Of a stretch of 64,000 nucleotides of DNA, positions 24,414 through 31,449 are shown piece by piece. The notes under the pieces are model-generated. The model was not told the origin of the DNA and did no database searches. It saw nothing but the letters and a program-made list of their open reading frames with translations. The stretch spans positions 64,363 through 128,362 of the forward strand of contig CANPWB010000002.1 of assembly GCA_947581925.1 (NCBI GenBank), written 5' to 3'. The translations under genes were made by a program, and so were the position numbers. How positions within the stretch are numbered: position 1 is the stretch's first letter; each line of letters opens with the position of its first letter. Origin of the DNA: an uncultured Clostridia bacterium (GTDB lineage: Bacteria; Bacillota; Clostridia; Christensenellales; CAG-917).

Positions 24414-24438
24414 CAACAGGTTTTCAAAGGAAGCAACG

Positions 24439-26595
24439 ATGAAAAAGAAAGTAGTTATCATACTTGCGACAGTGCTGGTTGTTATGCTGGCACTTTTCGC
24501 ATTTACAGCGTGCAACAATGCGAGCAGCGATGTCGGGGAGGAGCTTGTCCAAAACGGCTCCTTTGCAGCATTCAACGGTACTAATAAACAGTTTGACAGT
24601 TGGACTTCATACTCATCCAAGACGAGCGGTTTTGATTTTGGCAAATCCACGTCATCAGACGACAGCGAGTCGAGACTCTATATCGACAACAGCTCCGCAA
24701 TGTACAGCAATATGCAACAGAGGATTCACGTTGACACAAACAAGATATACAAAGTCAGCGTAGACATCTGGGTCACGACGCAAGACGGGCTCAGCGGCGA
24801 TTACGGCGCGTATGTGGCGTTCCTCGAAAATACGGAGTACAAGTTTGCCTATACGAAACAGCACACGGACGGTATGGTCACAAAGACATTCTATGTGCGC
24901 CCGAGAAATACTGACTACCTCACGCTTGCGCTGTGCCTCGGCACTGAAGAGCAGGGGGTAGCAGGTCACGTGCTCTTTGACAACGTATCTGTACAGAGAG
25001 TGGAGAAGGCGGATGTCCCCGGCGACGCGTCGATAATCAACTTCCGCAAAGCGGTCACGCTTGCAAACGATACGACTGTTTCCGGCATACTCTTCGTGGT
25101 TTTCCTTACGCTGTTCACAGTCGCGCTATTCGTTTGCGTATACGTTTTGCTCAGAAGGCTGTACGCAAGCCCCAAGGCATTCGTCAACTTCGGCGACAAC
25201 GGCACTTCGGAAGGCGGCAAACTGCTTGCTCCTCCGCAAGACGGCAAGTGGTATCATAATGCCGCATTTATCGCGGCAATGCTCATGCTCGGGACATTCC
25301 TTGTGAGGATCATCTTCCTGCTTACGATGAATGGCACAGGCGTCGAAACCACAATGGCAAAATTGGTCGAGACGACGCGCTTGCTCGGCCTAAAGAACGG
25401 CATATCGAATTATCTTGTAAACAACTCGGGCAGCACTATGTCGCCGGGCGCGCTCTACATCCTCGCCGTGATAGGCGCGATGGGCGCAAAATTGCCGATA
25501 CAGTCCGTGTCAATACTCATCAGATTTGTCAATGTGCTTGCGGATATGGCTATCGTCGCAATGATATATTTCTACGGCAAAAAGCGCGTAGGCAACAGAC
25601 TCGGCACGATATACGCCGCGGTGTATGCGCTCACTCCCTTCGTATTTGTCATGAGCGGTCTTGTAGGCAGCTTTGAGAGCGTGCTCATAGCGCTTATGCT
25701 TGCGACTGTCATACTCATGGTCAACAAGCAATATCTTGCGACTTACTTCATGGCGACGCTCGCGTCCGTGTTCGATCTCCGCGCAATGGCGATAGTGCCC
25801 ATCATCGTCGCGTACTTCGTGTATATGTACTTGAAGGACGACGCAGACCTCAAAAAATTCACGTCTAAACGCGCGCAGATAGTATTCGGGCTTGTCGCAT
25901 GTTTCGTGCTCGGATATATACTCACGCTGCCTCTCGCGATAGACAGGATAGCGGCCGGCGACGCTTTCTATGGCTTTAAGGTCATAGTCGGAGAGATGAC
26001 AAACAACTCGAAATTCGTCATGAACGCATTCAACCTCTACGGCATGGTCGCGATGAACGGCAGAAACGTTACAAAAGGCGTGGCGATACTCAACCTCATC
26101 TTCATCATTGTGCTTGAGGCGTATGCGATATCGCTGTACTTCAAAAACCGCAACAGGCAAGAGCTTGTGCTACTCGTATCCTTCGTGCTCGCGGTGATAG
26201 CGGTGTTTACGGTCAAGGTGAATTACACCTATCTGCTGCTATCGCTCGCGTTCGCATTCATCTACACGATGATAAGCGGCGACAAGAGGATGTACATCAT
26301 CACGGGCGGATACAGTGTGCTCGGCTTTTTGCAGCTCGGACAGTTGCTCAACCAGAGCGGTATGATAGCGGCAAATCCCACGACCGCGCTCACCAACTAC
26401 GAGACGACAAGCCCGTTCTTCATAATCTTCTGCGTATTTGCGGTGTTGCTTACGGGCTACTATGTGTACGTAGTGTATTCTATTACAAACAACTCTAAGA
26501 TAGTAGACATCAAGGCTATGCCTGACAAATTCGGTAAGACTCTCAAGAATTTCTTCAAAGAGCTGAAATTGCGCTTTGGAAAGAGCGGCAATTGA
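24439..26595 (+). CDS. lipobox signal + CBM4_9-like ectodomain fused to a ~14-TM GT-C-like (Gpi18/PMT_2/DUF2029-like) membrane domain
   Basis: Internal ATG at 24439 (MKKKVVIILATVLVVMLALFAFTAC). Residues ~30-200 are paralogous to gene 23233-23865. They are followed by many hydrophobic helices and a loop (..GISNYLVNNSGSTMSPGALYILAVIG) resembling the first periplasmic loop of GT-C glycosyltransferases. The ORF-track start at 24313 overlaps rplS and is rejected. Confidence 0.55.
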   Translation: MKKKVVIILATVLVVMLALFAFTACNNASSDVGEELVQNGSFAAFNGTNKQFDSWTSYSSKTSGFDFGKSTSSDDSESRLYIDNSSAMYSNMQQRIHVDTNKIYKVSVDIWVTTQDGLSGDYGAYVAFLENTEYKFAYTKQHTDGMVTKTFYVRPRNTDYLTLALCLGTEEQGVAGHVLFDNVSVQRVEKADVPGDASIINFRKAVTLANDTTVSGILFVVFLTLFTVALFVCVYVLLRRLYASPKAFVNFGDNGTSEGGKLLAPPQDGKWYHNAAFIAAMLMLGTFLVRIIFLLTMNGTGVETTMAKLVETTRLLGLKNGISNYLVNNSGSTMSPGALYILAVIGAMGAKLPIQSVSILIRFVNVLADMAIVAMIYFYGKKRVGNRLGTIYAAVYALTPFVFVMSGLVGSFESVLIALMLATVILMVNKQYLATYFMATLASVFDLRAMAIVPIIVAYFVYMYLKDDADLKKFTSKRAQIVFGLVACFVLGYILTLPLAIDRIAAGDAFYGFKVIVGEMTNNSKFVMNAFNLYGMVAMNGRNVTKGVAILNLIFIIVLEAYAISLYFKNRNRQELVLLVSFVLAVIAVFTVKVNYTYLLLSLAFAFIYTMISGDKRMYIITGGYSVLGFLQLGQLLNQSGMIAANPTTALTNYETTSPFFIIFCVFAVLLTGYYVYVVYSITNNSKIVDIKAMPDKFGKTLKNFFKELKLRFGKSGN
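24533..24989 (+). repeat. direct repeat copy B (paralogous CBM-like domain)
   Basis: See copy A. The offset is 1188 nt, becoming 1182 nt after a 6-nt indel. Confidence 0.9.
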
Positions 26596-26944: not shown

Positions 26945-27451
26945 ATGTATTTAAAGATCACACAGAAGTATTGGACCATAGGAGACAAGTTCGCGTTGAC
27001 GGACGAAAACGATTGCAATGTGTTTTTTGCTAAGGAACAGTTGTTCAAATTGCTCTCAAAATTTGATTTGTATGATTTAAACGGAGCGGTGCTCTATCAT
27101 ATGGAGGCAAAGTTAAAATTCTTTCTTAGTTACTTTGTGATAACAACCGGCGCGGGTCTCGAAATCGGATATATAAAGGAAAGGGTGCACTGGCCGGGTT
27201 TCCGCCGCGCGAGCATGAAGGTGGGGGATATCGACATCAAGATAAAGGGCGGCCCCATCCATATGAAAGCCATGAAAAAAGATGCGAACGGCAAGTGGGA
27301 CAAAAAACATCCCGTCGTGAAGTCTACAAAGAAGTTGTTCAGGATAAGGGATATCTATGCTGCGGAGATCGATGAGAATATGATAGACCCCGCGGTAGGC
27401 GCGCTTGTCGCGATTTGGTATGACAAGATCCGCTACGGACGCAAGCACTGA
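26945..27451 (+). CDS. YxjI / LURP-one-related (tubby C-terminal-like, DUF567) family protein
   Basis: MYLKITQKYWTIGDKFALTDENDCNVFFAKEQLFKLLSKFDLYD matches the N-terminal beta-strand pattern of the YxjI/LOR family as I remember it. 168 aa. The gene is AT-richer than the core genes. Confidence 0.55.
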   Translation: MYLKITQKYWTIGDKFALTDENDCNVFFAKEQLFKLLSKFDLYDLNGAVLYHMEAKLKFFLSYFVITTGAGLEIGYIKERVHWPGFRRASMKVGDIDIKIKGGPIHMKAMKKDANGKWDKKHPVVKSTKKLFRIRDIYAAEIDENMIDPAVGALVAIWYDKIRYGRKH

Positions 27452-27507: not shown

Positions 27508-27537
27508 AAAAATCCACCCTAGGTCGGGTGGATTTTT
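27508..27537. terminator. bidirectional rho-independent terminator between convergent genes
   Basis: AAAAATCCACCC-taggtc-GGGTGGATTTTT. Confidence 0.8.
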
Positions 27538-27612: not shown

Positions 27613-29064
27613 TTACCAGAGGTCGTCGTTTCTCACTACGGACGCACCTTGAGCTGCGCGGGCAATTGCGTCAATGCCTTTTTTTGCGGCGTCCTTGCCA
27701 AGGTAGCCGTCGTTTGTTATGGCGACGACATTGCCGTTTGACGCGATGAGGCGCAGGCGGAATTCATTTTTATTATCAAGATAGATCTCCCACTTGGGGC
27801 ACTTTTGCTCGACAGGTTTCTTGAGAGTCTGATCCTCGATTGGCGCGGTCGCGGCATTGTTCATTACGCTTTGAATGCCGCCCTTGCACGACGCAAGATC
27901 TTTGTATGCGCCGCCCGGCACAGCAAGCACTCTCTTGTTTGAAGAGTAAAGTTTGTAGACAAAATTGCCTTTGTCAGTCTTTTTGATGACGAATTTGCCG
28001 TGTTGAGGCTTGGTCTCGTCTGCCTCGATCAAAACTTTTTCTTCATCATTGCTCATATTATTGTCCTCCTTTTTGGCGGTTGTTTTCTTTTCTGCAGTGG
28101 CTTTAGCTGCTGGAGCCGCGTCCTTCTGCGCGTTTTGAGCGGTTACATCTGCCGCTACATTATTCTGTTTGGAGTTGTCGGCAGGCTTTTTCGCCGTTTT
28201 CTTTGCGGGTTTAGCCTCTGCCTCTATTTCGCTGCTCGTTTCGGACGTCGTTTTCTTCTTGGACGACTTTTTGACGTTTATCGTGGCGGCTGCCCACACG
28301 CCTTCCGTTGCGGCGCTTTTTTTGGAGCTATAGGGGTCTAAATTATCGTCGGACTCGTTGCCGTATTCTGTCCTCGCAATGCGAGGTTTTGAGGAATTTT
28401 TGTTATGAGGCTTAGCTGACGGCTTTTCTGTAGTGATCGGGGCGGGGGAAACTTCTTGCGTTTGCGCAGGCTCATCATGCGCAGGTTCTTCTTGCGCAGG
28501 CTCTTCTGTAATAAGTTCTGATCCTTGTTCTTCCGAGCTTTCGGCTTGCTCTTCCGACGCTTGAGAGGCTGACGGTTCTTCCTCTTGAGAATCGGAGGAT
28601 CCGTCCTCTTGATCGACGGGCTGTACGGTCTCTTCAGAATTGGGCTGCTCATGTGATTGATCGTCGGACGGTTCGTCCGCTTGATCGTCGGACGGTTCGT
28701 CAAAGTTTTCCTCGGCAGGCTCTTCAGACTCCTCAACATGATCGGCATCCTCGGCATCTTCATCAAGTTCTTCGCCAAGGGATTCGTCTTCTACAAGCTC
28801 TTCCTCTTCATCAATCTCGTCTTCTACTATGAGTTCTTCCTCTTCATCAAGCTCATCTTCTTCAATAAGCTCATCCTCTTCGACAAGTTCATCTTCTACG
28901 ATGGGGTCCTCTATCTCATCGATTTCATCAACTTCCTCGAGCATTTCAAGTTCTTCCTCATCATCGCTCTGCTCAGAAGAGTCGAGAAGGACGCCGACAG
29001 GGGCATACTTGTCGTATTCTACGACCTCGCTGTTCAAAAAGACTTTTTTGTCGTCATTACCCAT
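27613..29064 (-). CDS. disordered acidic-block / basic-block protein with two C-terminal YegP (DUF1508) domains
   Basis: 483 aa. Residues ~30-200 are mostly D/E (EDELVEEDELIEEDELDEEEEL.., DEPSDDQADEPSDDQ). Residues ~200-345 are K/A/S/T-rich (KPAKKTAKKPAD, AEKKTTAKKE). The C-terminus has two YegP-like repeats (GKFVIKKTDKGNFVYKLYSSNKRVLA..; KWEIYLDNKNEFRLRLIASNGNVVAI..GYLGKDAAKKGIDAI). Confidence 0.7.
   Translation of the reverse strand: MGNDDKKVFLNSEVVEYDKYAPVGVLLDSSEQSDDEEELEMLEEVDEIDEIEDPIVEDELVEEDELIEEDELDEEEELIVEDEIDEEEELVEDESLGEELDEDAEDADHVEESEEPAEENFDEPSDDQADEPSDDQSHEQPNSEETVQPVDQEDGSSDSQEEEPSASQASEEQAESSEEQGSELITEEPAQEEPAHDEPAQTQEVSPAPITTEKPSAKPHNKNSSKPRIARTEYGNESDDNLDPYSSKKSAATEGVWAAATINVKKSSKKKTTSETSSEIEAEAKPAKKTAKKPADNSKQNNVAADVTAQNAQKDAAPAAKATAEKKTTAKKEDNNMSNDEEKVLIEADETKPQHGKFVIKKTDKGNFVYKLYSSNKRVLAVPGGAYKDLASCKGGIQSVMNNAATAPIEDQTLKKPVEQKCPKWEIYLDNKNEFRLRLIASNGNVVAITNDGYLGKDAAKKGIDAIARAAQGASVVRNDDLW
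28657..28704. repeat. 24-nt tandem duplication inside the acidic region
   Basis: ttgatcgtcggacggttcgtc occurs twice at period 24. On the coding minus strand it encodes DEPSDDQ twice. Confidence 0.85.
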
Positions 29065-29198
29065 AATGCTCCTCGGAGCTTAGCTCAAAAGCTCCATATT
29101 TCGACTTTATTATTTATATTCTAACATATACTACGATGTAAATCAACACTCAAAGAAAATTTATTTTCGGTAAATTTTGTGGTTTTCAAAGAAAAAAA

Positions 29199-29227
29199 TT
29201 GAAAATCAACACAATATGTGGTATGAT
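29199..29227 (+). promoter_or_regulatory. sigma-A promoter (extended -10) placed 8 nt from the pcrA ATG
   Basis: TTGAAA (29199-29204), a 17-nt spacer ending in TGg, then TATGAT (29222-29227). The pcrA ATG is at 29236. Confidence 0.5.
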
Positions 29228-29235
29228 AAGGCAGT

Positions 29236-31449
29236 ATGAAAATAGAGCTTAATCCACAACAGAAACAGGCGGTCATGGACACCGAGGGGGCTATCCTGGT
29301 TATAGCGGGCGCGGGCAGCGGCAAGACGCGAGTGCTCACGGAGCGCATATGTCATTTGATAGAACTTGGCGTGTCGCCGTACAACATTCTTGCGCTGACG
29401 TTCACCAACAAGGCGGCAAACGAGATGAAGGAGCGTATTGAGCGCGAGATAGGCGCTTCGCAGGTTTGGACGAGCACTTTCCACTCGCTTTGCGCGCGCA
29501 TTTTGCGCATAGATATTGACAAACTCGGCTATACGAAGGATTTCACGATATATACGGAGCAGGAGAGCGACCGCGTAGTCAAGCGCGTACTTATGGATAT
29601 GCCGTCCATCGACCCGAAAAAGAAGGGCGAGTATCTTTGGCATATCTCGCGCGCCAAGACGCTTGCGCTCTCGCCCGACGACTATTATGACGAGATAAAG
29701 CGAGACGACAACGACGCTTTCAACATAAAAAAAGTATATGTCCGCTATGAGGAGGAGCTCAAACGCTCCAACAGCCTCGATTACGACGACCTACTGCTCA
29801 AGACGGTGCAGCTTTTCGAGGAATTTCCCGACGTGCTTGAAAAATATCGCAGGCGGTTTTTATATACGCATGTGGATGAATTTCAAGACACAAACAGGCT
29901 GCAATACAAAATCATGAAGATGATAGCCTCGGGCAGCGGCAACGTTTTTGCGGTGGGCGACGAGGACCAATCCATATATAGCTGGCGCGGCGCTGATATC
30001 CGCAACATCCTCGAGTTCGAAAAAGATTTCAAGGGCGCGAAGATATACAAGCTGGAGCAGAATTACAGGAGCACCACGTCCATACTTAAAGCCGCGAACA
30101 GGGTCATCAAAAACAACTCTCAGCGCCAGGACAAGACTTTGTGGAGCGATATCGACAGCGACGATCCTATAGTGTATTACGAGGCGTACAGCGACCGCGA
30201 CGAGGCGGAGCAGGTGGCAAGGACGGTGGACGCGCTTGTCAAGGAAGGGCTTAGCTACAGCGACATCGCGGTCTTGGTACGCGCAAACTCGCTCACCCGC
30301 CTTTTTGAAGAGGAGTTCAATCTGCACTCCATACCATATAAGGTGTTCGGCGGTTTCCGTTTCTTCGAGCGCAAGGAGATAAAGGACGCGCTTGCCTATG
30401 TGCGCTTGGCGATAAATCCGCACGACAGCGACAGCCTACTCAGGATAATCAACTATCCGCGCAGAGGCATAGGCGAGACTACTGTGAGGGAGCTCATCAA
30501 TGCAGCGGCGAAACAGGGCATATCCGTGTACGACGCGCTTAAAAGCGGCGCGGGATTGAGCGCGGCGACAGTCAAAAAACTCATGCCGTTCAGAGCGTGT
30601 ATAGACGACATCATAGCCGCGTGCGCGACGATGAAACCCACTGAATTTATACAATACGTCGTGCGCAAGAGCGGCATAGAGACATTTTTGTCCACAAGCG
30701 CGGATATTGAGGACGCTACGCGTCTCGACAACGTGCAGGAACTCGTGAACGCCGTGAGCGAGTTTGAGAAGGACAATCCCGAGCTTGGCATATCCGAATT
30801 TATGCAGTCTGTCGCGCTCGTTTCCGATACGGACGAGATGGACGATCAAAACTATGTCAGCATTGCGACCATCCACGCCGTCAAGGGGCTGGAATTCGAG
30901 GCTGTATTCATAGTAGGGCTCGAAGAGGGCATTTTCCCGTCGCAGCGCGCGATAATAAGCGGCGACATAGAGGAAGAGCGCAGGCTGATGTATGTCGCCA
31001 TCACGCGCGCAAAGCGCAAACTGTATGTAGTGAATTCGCGCTCGCGCTATCGTTTCGGCAAGACTGAGTACATGCCAAAAAGCCGCTTTATCGGCGAGAT
31101 GTCGGGCGTCAAGCAGACGATGAGATACACGAATTCGGGCTACGGCACGCAAAATGAAGAGCGAATAAAGCTCGGCGCAAATGCGTCCTCGGCGGCGTCC
31201 GTACTCAAGGGCGGGGCATTCACGCCTCAAAAAAAGAGCGCGCCTTCGACCTCGAACGGAGTGGATCTCGACAAATTTGTCAAGAATACTGTCGTGGAGC
31301 ACACAAAGTTCGGGCGCGGTATAATCGTAGAGACGAGTGGCGAAGGCGAGGACAAGATAGCGGCGATCGCATTCAAAGGTTTGGGGGTCAAACGCTTTGC
31401 GCTCGCTATAGCCGCTGTGAGTCTGAAGATCGTGGACGACCCGTCTTGA
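29236..31449 (+). CDS. pcrA: ATP-dependent DNA helicase PcrA (UvrD family)
   Basis: LNPQQKQAV, Walker A AGAGSGKT, VDEFQDTN, QNYRST, TIHAVKGLEF and YVAITRAK are present. Confidence 0.95.
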   Translation: MKIELNPQQKQAVMDTEGAILVIAGAGSGKTRVLTERICHLIELGVSPYNILALTFTNKAANEMKERIEREIGASQVWTSTFHSLCARILRIDIDKLGYTKDFTIYTEQESDRVVKRVLMDMPSIDPKKKGEYLWHISRAKTLALSPDDYYDEIKRDDNDAFNIKKVYVRYEEELKRSNSLDYDDLLLKTVQLFEEFPDVLEKYRRRFLYTHVDEFQDTNRLQYKIMKMIASGSGNVFAVGDEDQSIYSWRGADIRNILEFEKDFKGAKIYKLEQNYRSTTSILKAANRVIKNNSQRQDKTLWSDIDSDDPIVYYEAYSDRDEAEQVARTVDALVKEGLSYSDIAVLVRANSLTRLFEEEFNLHSIPYKVFGGFRFFERKEIKDALAYVRLAINPHDSDSLLRIINYPRRGIGETTVRELINAAAKQGISVYDALKSGAGLSAATVKKLMPFRACIDDIIAACATMKPTEFIQYVVRKSGIETFLSTSADIEDATRLDNVQELVNAVSEFEKDNPELGISEFMQSVALVSDTDEMDDQNYVSIATIHAVKGLEFEAVFIVGLEEGIFPSQRAIISGDIEEERRLMYVAITRAKRKLYVVNSRSRYRFGKTEYMPKSRFIGEMSGVKQTMRYTNSGYGTQNEERIKLGANASSAASVLKGGAFTPQKKSAPSTSNGVDLDKFVKNTVVEHTKFGRGIIVETSGEGEDKIAAIAFKGLGVKRFALAIAAVSLKIVDDPS

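Follow-up and report, generated by a model that had tools for sequence, protein, structure and literature searches.

The window analysed here is a stretch of 64,000 nucleotides (nt) from an uncultured Clostridia bacterium (contig CANPWB010000002.1), and our subject is the gene at 27613-29064 on its minus strand, which encodes a protein of 483 amino acids (aa) ending in a tandem YegP/DUF1508 domain. The gene is genuine and is conserved within a lineage of uncultured gut Clostridia. Comparison of its orthologues suggests that it probably makes two nested products, of 483 aa and 147 aa, because an internal in-frame start with its Shine-Dalgarno (SD) sequence is conserved at the nucleotide level, the rate of evolution breaks at that start, and one related locus carries a short-only version of the gene. 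An initial annotation, made from the DNA letters and their translations, had described the charge pattern and the terminal domains; new beyond it are a conserved N-terminal motif (N-motif), a second short motif (W-motif), the conserved internal SD and start, and the conserved pairing with pcrA-ligA.

A conserved internal translation start

The two predicted products and their starts lie as follows.

27613-29064, minus strand: full open reading frame (ORF), the long isoform; 483 aa, ATG start, net charge about -80
29069-29074, minus strand: GAGGAG, the SD of the long isoform, with a spacing of only 4 nt to the ATG at 29064; anti-SD duplex -7.9 kcal/mol
28054-28069, minus strand: internal start at M337, with GGAGG at 28069-28065, an 8-nt spacer and ATG at 28056-28054; duplex -11.8 kcal/mol
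27613-28056, minus strand: predicted short isoform, aa 337-483; 147 aa, net charge about +4, the bare YegP module

The window sequence AAAAAGGAGGACAATAATATG holds a perfect GGAGG 8 nt ahead of the ATG of M337. We scored the 46 orthologues with an identifiable N-terminus, counting an SD as strong when its duplex energy was -9 kcal/mol or lower. A single in-frame ATG or GTG led by a strong SD was found in 44 of the 46, between 19 and 103 aa ahead of the first DUF1508 repeat; of the other two orthologues, L014 shows a weaker SD in the same place, and in L040 we found no site. Of the 348 in-frame NTG codons, 47 follow a strong SD, compared with 2 of the 722 that are out of frame (Fisher p 7.6e-22, for loci that are related by descent). 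Distant relatives with equally K/E-rich extensions served as a negative control, and no internal start with a strong SD was found in them.

The site is also uniform in its detail. The spacing is 8 nt at 37 of the 44 sites, the consensus reads GGAGGAAAAnAAA-GTG-GCA-AAA, and the peptide that follows the start is MAK or VAK in 34 of the 44. The residue before the central Glu varies (T, K, E, S or M) while its third base is always G, and the residue after the Glu varies as well (E, D, G, A, Y, N or V). Specifically, Thr is encoded by ACG in 21 of 21 cases, against a background of 26%; Glu by GAG in 44 of 44, against 30%; and Lys by AAG in 12 of 12, against 43%. Because G-GAG-G is preserved at the nucleotide level although it encodes different residues, the constraint acts on the RNA and not on the peptide. 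In other words, the gene has an in-frame SD and start at a functional spacing, conserved beyond what the peptide needs, as is expected of a nested isoform.

Another line of evidence is the rate of change on either side of M337. The closest relative, L001, whose PcrA is 97% identical, matches the window protein at 66-70% upstream of M337 and at 97% downstream, and on this comparison the evolutionary rate changes sharply at that residue. A further locus, L032 (1600-2749), keeps the same promoter and the pcrA neighbour but is missing the whole N-terminal half; its gene begins at the homologous MAKE start behind GGAGG, after a leader of about 190 nt that is full of stops, and its product is a 145-aa K/A/T-rich tail plus the YegP module. 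The predicted short form in most other lineages likewise keeps a basic tail, of 30-90 aa, for a total of 150-230 aa.

Nested isoforms from in-frame internal starts are known for infB (IF2 alpha and beta), clpB and cheA (long and short). The arrangement here resembles theirs in that a single ORF has two in-frame starts, each led by an SD, and the short product corresponds to the C-terminal functional module of the long one. It differs in that the evidence here is comparative, and in that the part absent from the short form is almost entirely disordered.

Composition and disorder of the long isoform

An in-frame stop lies only five codons upstream of the ATG of the 483-aa ORF, and five metagenome contigs encode the identical protein with the same neighbours. 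Two disordered blocks make up most of its N-terminal part.

28465-28974, minus strand: acidic disordered block, aa 31-200; 86 D/E and 0 K/R
28057-28464, minus strand: disordered block of mixed charge, rich in K/A/S/T, aa 201-336; about neutral to +5

The acidic block has a net charge per residue of -0.51. In an AlphaFold2 model built from an 87-sequence alignment, the predicted local distance difference test score (pLDDT) is below 50 over most of aa 29-340, so the acidic and disordered character first described for the protein stands. The kappa value that the initial annotation had called for is 0.34 for aa 1-345, against 0.21 +/- 0.02 for shuffled sequences; the charges are indeed segregated. 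Its quasi-repeats proved to be real tandem repeats in the DNA, with units of 18 nt (6.2 copies, 28787-28897), 15 nt (3.1 copies, 28462-28507) and 12 nt (3.4 copies, 28661-28701), and the acidic block is partly made of them.

Other parts of that description have to be revised. The second block is rich in K, A, S and T, as stated, but with 26 K/R against 21 D/E in aa 201-345 its net charge is only about +5, and the label 'histone-H1-like' overstates it. With so little charge on this block, the protein as a whole is strongly polyanionic (about -80) and no balanced block polyampholyte, contrary to what had been proposed. The gene had also been called AT-richer than the core genes; the difference is marginal, its GC content of 0.494 being within one standard deviation of the window mean (0.520, standard deviation 0.027), with 16% of stretches of the same size lower. 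A calculated pI of 9.3 makes the YegP part (aa 346-483) mildly basic. Other long ORFs overlap the gene, among them 28338-28778 (minus strand) and 28657-29124 (plus strand); they were set aside as by-products of purine-rich, low-complexity coding sequence, the coding strand of the gene being 60% purine.

The YegP/DUF1508 module

28002-27832, minus strand: DUF1508 repeat 1, about aa 355-411; best Pfam stretch 365-411, AlphaFold2 strands in 356-382 and helix 390-403
27801-27628, minus strand: DUF1508 repeat 2, about aa 422-479; NCBIfam HVO_2922 stretch 424-476 and AlphaFold2
27633-27613, minus strand: C-terminal tip R-N-D-D-L-W-COOH, aa 478-483; invariant or nearly so across the family

The tandem YegP/DUF1508 assignment of the C-terminus was borne out by a profile search, which matched PF07411 in two stretches with an E-value of 1.6e-19 and 69.9 bits against a cut-off of 22. 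The domain occupies the last 29% of the 483-aa protein. At E<0.1, Pfam returned only DUF1508 and a chance match to DUF4369, with no H1 or HC2 match in the window protein. The NCBIfam equivalog NF041908 (HVO_2922) scored 75.7 bits, below its curated cut-off of 90.

Structure prediction agrees with the sequence matches. For about aa 341-480 the AlphaFold2 pLDDT exceeds 90 and the model has two beta-beta-beta-alpha units; Foldseek matches it to E. coli YegP (2K8E; E 1.6e-8, target TM-score 0.86), and SO_3888 (2K49) was also matched at a target TM-score of 0.80. A sequence search matched five UPF0339 entries in PDB, of which 6Q2Z aligns to residues 89-141 of the short isoform, that is, to repeat 2. 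The C-terminal 130 aa are therefore the same tandem DUF1508 pseudo-dimer as in E. coli YegP/UPF0339 (PDB 2K8E, 2K49, 6Q2Z, 3BID). YegP and its solved homologues are stand-alone proteins of 58-130 aa, whereas in the window protein the domain follows about 340 aa of disordered sequence with segregated charges; the window protein also differs in having two short conserved motifs, a second start inside the gene and a fixed synteny with pcrA-ligA. The small stand-alone size typical of YegP (about 55-130 aa) is exceeded by the 483-aa protein; the predicted 147-aa isoform would fit it.

The R-N-D-D-L-W tip is an acidic-aromatic tail. The C-terminal tips of SSB proteins are also acidic-aromatic tails, of which it is reminiscent.

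Family architecture and conserved motifs

We searched 5.8 billion proteins and obtained 240 matches at E<=1e-5. The best 120 of these all contain PF07411 and are 271-835 aa long, and more distant tandem-DUF1508 proteins (43-47% identity) commonly carry K/A/T-rich N-terminal extensions of 100-300 aa. Contrary to the earlier supposition, an extension of this kind is not atypical among the relatives of the protein. For the widespread DUF1508 family, a search at E<=1e-3 gave 1099 representative clusters.

When 21 and 87 members were aligned, the alignments and their logos brought out a common plan: an N-terminal motif, an unalignable spacer, the W-motif, an unalignable K/A/T/P-rich segment and the YegP module.

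28984-29043, minus strand: N-terminal motif, aa 8-27, VFLNSEVVEYDKYAPVGVLL; consensus D-E-I-x-F-L-E-S-E-I-x-D-D-D-x-D-A-P-V-G-T-L-I
28267-28305, minus strand: W-motif, aa 254-266, EGVWAAATINVKK; consensus D-[LV]-W-[AG]-x-A-x-[IV]-x-x-x-K-K

In the N-motif, F9, E13, D17, D18, A21, P22, G24 and L26 are at least 90% conserved among the 87 sequences, and its pLDDT is 71 as against about 45 for the surrounding region; the W-motif is at least 90% conserved at W257 and A260. When the first 44 aa were used as a profile, the search returned nothing but eight short fragments of this same family and no other protein family. The YegP module is 65-97% identical across the family and rich in invariant Lys and Arg.

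The two segments between these fixed points were compared in the 42 complete orthologues whose W-motif could be placed. The spacer from N-motif to W-motif has a median length of 216 aa and is 27% acidic and 8% basic; the segment from W-motif to domain has a median of 124 aa and is 16% acidic and 25% basic. The acidic-then-basic bias is kept across orthologues, and the order of charges is thus a property of the family. The extreme of the family is the window protein, with 42% acidic residues. Against the closest relative, L001, its acidic block is 66% identical, with 74 gap columns. As judged from these alignments, the composition of the spacers is maintained while their sequence and length drift quickly. 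The comparison with homologues that the initial annotation had asked for does not bring out the random expansion that would have refuted its reading: the extension is conserved in presence and in compositional bias. An acidic block is not universal, and its length changes fast.

Two variants of the N-terminal part were seen. One 994-aa homologue (P0128) has a duplicated N-motif, and its acidic region is interrupted by three copies of a domain of about 110 aa; a reading of that domain as MmcQ/YjbR-like was dropped, as it has no Pfam match even at E<=10. At the locus L057 (contig CALWAF010000002.1; P0249) the N-motif is in a separately called ORF of 36 aa, split from the remaining gene, which points to a frameshift, a stop codon or a fault in the assembly.

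The disordered region and YegP module also occur behind other N-terminal parts. In locus L013 (3981-6498, protein P0004) the acidic/basic intrinsically disordered region (IDR) and tandem DUF1508 form a cassette fused to an MFS_2 transporter, in a protein of 835 aa; in L016 (670-2652) the same cassette is fused to an OppF-like ABC ATPase (ABC_tran plus oligo_HPY), in a protein of 660 aa. Both fusions are second copies within the same metagenome-assembled genomes (MAGs). More distant relatives such as L069 (1781-2797) and L073 (5001-5870), at 43-47% identity, combine amphipathic N-termini (MKILDVFGKGKK, MRPFDKFFKN) with long K/A/T-rich IDRs; relatives of this type, with MGLFxxLFGKKK-type N-termini, lie directly after a gene for a ClpP/NfeD-like protease and are without the internal SD and start. 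The recurrence of the cassette behind varied N-terminal parts fits the logic of an anchor, a flexible tether and a YegP head.

Distribution and synteny with pcrA-ligA

A scan of one genome per species gave 64 loci. Nearly all come from MAGs of uncultured gut Clostridia, from rabbit, chicken, mouse, buffalo and human, and the common labels are Christensenella sp., Christensenellaceae, Candidatus Limadaptatus and CAG:475; a few other taxon labels look like bin mis-assignments. Among the 53 loci with enough flanking sequence, about 50 have the YegP gene and pcrA-ligA diverging from each other, with 100-300 bp between them. This arrangement persists down to 59% PcrA identity and is also present in a relative at 47% identity from another assembly. 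The downstream neighbour of the YegP gene is not conserved among the loci.

In CP091723, a MAG chromosome of 1.65 Mb, there are two copies of the pcrA-ligA-YegP region (L042 and L051), roughly 6-36 kb from the record ends and with frameshift-like breaks. They probably reflect an untrimmed circular overlap together with long-read indel errors rather than a true duplication.

Proposed function

The literature searched on DUF1508 gives no function for the domain. Its members are described as dimers or tandem pseudo-dimers (bioRxiv 10.1101/2024.11.21.623966). In Menshen NsnA the domain is proposed to be a sensor, and the topology of tandem DUF1508 is said to be like that of the sPC4/Whirly binders of single-stranded DNA (PMC12065111). 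Homologues of yegP lie downstream of the DNA-damage-responsive regulators CapK/CapS in 57 cases (PMC13373217).

We propose that ribosomes would initiate at both starts and so yield the long isoform (483 aa, net about -80) and the short isoform of 147 aa. The YegP head, plus the basic tail where present, would be the working part and would bind a polyanion. Nucleic acid is the most plausible ligand because of the many invariant Lys and Arg residues and the linkage to pcrA-ligA, which would also suggest a setting in DNA repair or replication. The long isoform may dock to a partner or site through the N-motif, an acidic anchor in the pcrA-linked family, and this N-terminal element would then decide where the YegP head acts. 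The polyanionic tether could shield the ligand-binding surface or compete for it, as a form of electrostatic autoinhibition or spacing. As the tether would inhibit while the short form would run free, the ratio of the two starts would set the amount of free as against tethered or inhibited YegP module. Taken as a whole, we regard this explanation, two isoforms built from an anchor, a tether and a YegP head, as having an even chance of being right; our confidence is high for the architecture and the dual start, and low for the ligand and the link to DNA.

Several observations weigh against this explanation. Use of the internal start is deduced from comparison of sequences, and the 46 loci are phylogenetically non-independent, several being from one clade. 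The N-motif, for which docking on the YegP head itself was also considered, has an intermediate pLDDT of about 70 and no secondary structure in two AlphaFold2 models. The near-neutral basic block of the window protein weakens a simple intramolecular model of acid against base, and some homologues (P0095, P0012, L011 and L061) have neutral or basic first spacers. The transporter fusions and amphipathic N-termini point to roles near the membrane and not on DNA. The pairing with pcrA-ligA may be no more than an inherited order of genes that are not functionally linked. Finally, the 50 Foldseek matches listed from PDB include no PC4 or Whirly entry, only structures of the YegP family, and so the published resemblance to PC4/Whirly stays a lead only.

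A specific contact between the N-motif and PcrA was also considered. Partners of the PcrA/UvrD Tudor domain carry a helicase interaction motif with a TGE triad (PMC8318588). The segment D-A-P-V-G-[T/E]-L-[I/V] of the N-motif resembles it only partly; the strict pattern [VIL]-D-x-x-T-G-E-[VIL]-[VILT] is present neither in the window protein nor in any of 243 fetched relatives, and this candidate was rejected.

Alternative explanations

The charge blocks might themselves be functional, as a DNA mimic, a nucleoid binder or a condensate scaffold, the behaviours that the initial annotation had suggested. The segregation of charge in the window protein is real, the acidic-then-basic order is retained family-wide, and the K/A/T-rich tails are like those of bacterial H1-like proteins, one distant relative (P0160) even having a precomputed match to PF07382 (HC2). 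The window protein itself has no such Pfam match to H1 or HC2, however, and its blocks are unbalanced, at about -86 for the acidic one and about +5 for the basic one, which makes self-coacervation unlikely without a cationic partner. The acidic block, moreover, is absent or replaced in some homologues and grows and shrinks by tandem repeats; known DNA-mimic proteins are generally folded. We consider a polyampholyte function of this kind unlikely. We judge it similarly doubtful that the disordered region is a labile entropic spacer with no charge-specific role, in which case only the N-motif (for localisation) and the YegP head (for activity) would matter, and the internal SD and start would be a relic of gene fusion or a translational pause site that makes no second protein. 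A length that varies over about 100-350 aa with no conserved sequence, the tandem repeats and the occurrence of the YegP module behind quite different N-terminal anchors would all fit such a spacer, and a fusion would be expected to leave an SD before the once-separate YegP gene. A relic would decay, yet GGAGG, the 8-nt spacing and an NTG codon are kept in 44 of the 46 orthologues while their surroundings have diverged beyond alignment. Codon choice at the site is forced against the background, the compositional bias of both disordered segments is conserved, and L032 starts solely at the homologous site. A pause site, for its part, needs no in-frame start codon at optimal spacing.

It is less probable still that the protein serves in stress response or anti-phage defence, as other YegP homologues do, with no relation to PcrA or LigA. 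The literature offers E. coli yegP induced by sigma-S, yegP after CapK/CapS, and DUF1508 sensor domains in Menshen NsnA and in Bub ubiquitin-like proteins, and DUF1508 is found in the phage families PHROG 1422, 8105 and 11465. PADLOC, on the other hand, had no family matching at E<=0.01; the immediate neighbourhood showed no gene like capK/capS and no other defence gene; and the gene has a stable core-genome position beside pcrA-ligA across the whole clade, which is no variable defence island.

A bolder form of the two-isoform explanation can be stated, although we hold it to be a long shot. In it, the short isoform would be a basic YegP binder of nucleic acid or another polyanion and the long isoform its polyanionic, partner-docked antagonist; the two would form a disordered electrostatic pair, like prothymosin-alpha and H1, that buffers or localises YegP activity at PcrA/LigA-dependent sites of DNA repair or at transcription-replication conflicts. 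If true, it would give the DUF1508 family its first function and provide an example, in gut Clostridia, of control by isoform ratio through dual translation starts. The two-isoform model itself, if true, would be a clear comparative-genomics case of bacterial nested isoforms and would show a polyanionic disordered region paired with the domain that it regulates. The fold itself is already known. Of the papers searched that mention DUF1508, YegP, UPF0339 or HVO_2922, none describes the extended architecture, the motifs, the internal start or the pcrA-ligA pairing.

DUF1508/YegP is widespread, occurring also in phages and inside defence-system proteins, and the present clade is a well-supported, experimentally tractable way into it, with unusually rich handles: a fixed genomic partner in pcrA-ligA, three conserved short motifs, an internal start that splits the head from its disordered regulator, and natural variants with the head on transporters or alone. 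Because the organisms are abundant uncultured gut Clostridia, the YegP protein probably belongs to the core of a lineage that has been little studied.

Comparison with other charged-tail proteins

In eukaryotic PC4/Sub1 and HMGB1-type proteins, acidic regulatory tails can mask a basic or DNA-binding part. The outline of the window protein is similar, acidic disordered and Lys-rich regions flanking a small, putatively nucleic-acid-binding fold; it differs in that its acidic region is about 10 times longer and that no sequence or Foldseek similarity to PC4 or Whirly was found. Histone-H1-like proteins with K/A/P repeats include Chlamydia Hc1 and Hc2, AlgP and the tail of mycobacterial HupB. Similar K/A/T/P-rich repeats occur here (PAKKTAKKPA, AEKKTTAKK), although the segment that holds them in the window protein is nearly neutral, with the 26 K/R and 21 D/E given above.

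The delta subunit of RNA polymerase in Bacilli (RpoE) has a folded domain and a polyanionic disordered tail that displaces nucleic acids, and it is paired with the PcrA-like helicase HelD. Like RpoE, the window protein joins a small folded domain to a long polyanionic disordered region; its domain order is reversed, its fold is unrelated, and it is without the PcrA Tudor-binding motif. The HelD context is described elsewhere (PMC8655204).

Promoter, leader and neighbouring genes

29118-29146, minus strand: promoter of the YegP gene; -35 TTGATT, 17-nt spacer, extended -10 TGtTAGAAT; near-consensus, from a consensus scan
29075-29095, minus strand: hairpin in the 5' untranslated region, GGAGCUU-(7 nt)-AAGCUCC, directly before the first SD; from the minimum-free-energy fold, not significant alone (z -0.96)
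27508-27537, both strands: bidirectional intrinsic terminator, AAAAAUCCACCC-6 nt-GGGUGGAUUUUU; -21.0 and -18.1 kcal/mol, z -3.4 and -3.5
26945-27451, plus strand: LOR/LURP-one-like gene (PF04525, weak Pfam match), 168 aa, convergent neighbour
24436-26595, plus strand: multi-pass membrane protein, 719 aa, upstream of the LOR-like gene; no significant Pfam match
29199-29236 region, plus strand: pcrA promoter, TTGAAA-17-TGgTATGAT, ending only 8 nt before the pcrA ATG

The gene had been read as monocistronic, between a bidirectional terminator and the pcrA promoter, and this layout is as described; the terminator is common to the YegP gene and the convergent LOR-like gene, which is kept only in the closest relatives. 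The TTGATT...TG-n-TA-n-AAT arrangement of the promoter is also found upstream of orthologues. It leaves a leader of about 50 nt, the hairpin of which could regulate translation of the long isoform only. In another clade (L022, L035 and others) the leader has a conserved 12-bp hairpin with an SD-like 5' arm (AGAGGAG) and one compensatory pair. Rfam gave no known RNA element in the leader or the ORF at E<=1.

On the other side, pcrA (from 29236) and ligA (from 31668) are divergent from the YegP gene. Since its promoter ends so close to the ATG, pcrA appears to be transcribed into an mRNA with little or no leader. A pattern scan for SOS (Cheo) boxes found none in the intergenic region on the pcrA side, with a total count below chance, and the sole exact match nearby sits inside the LOR-like gene. 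Within the spacer of the pcrA promoter is a near-palindrome, CCACA-TAT-TGTGG, which is also present upstream of pcrA in most of the related loci.

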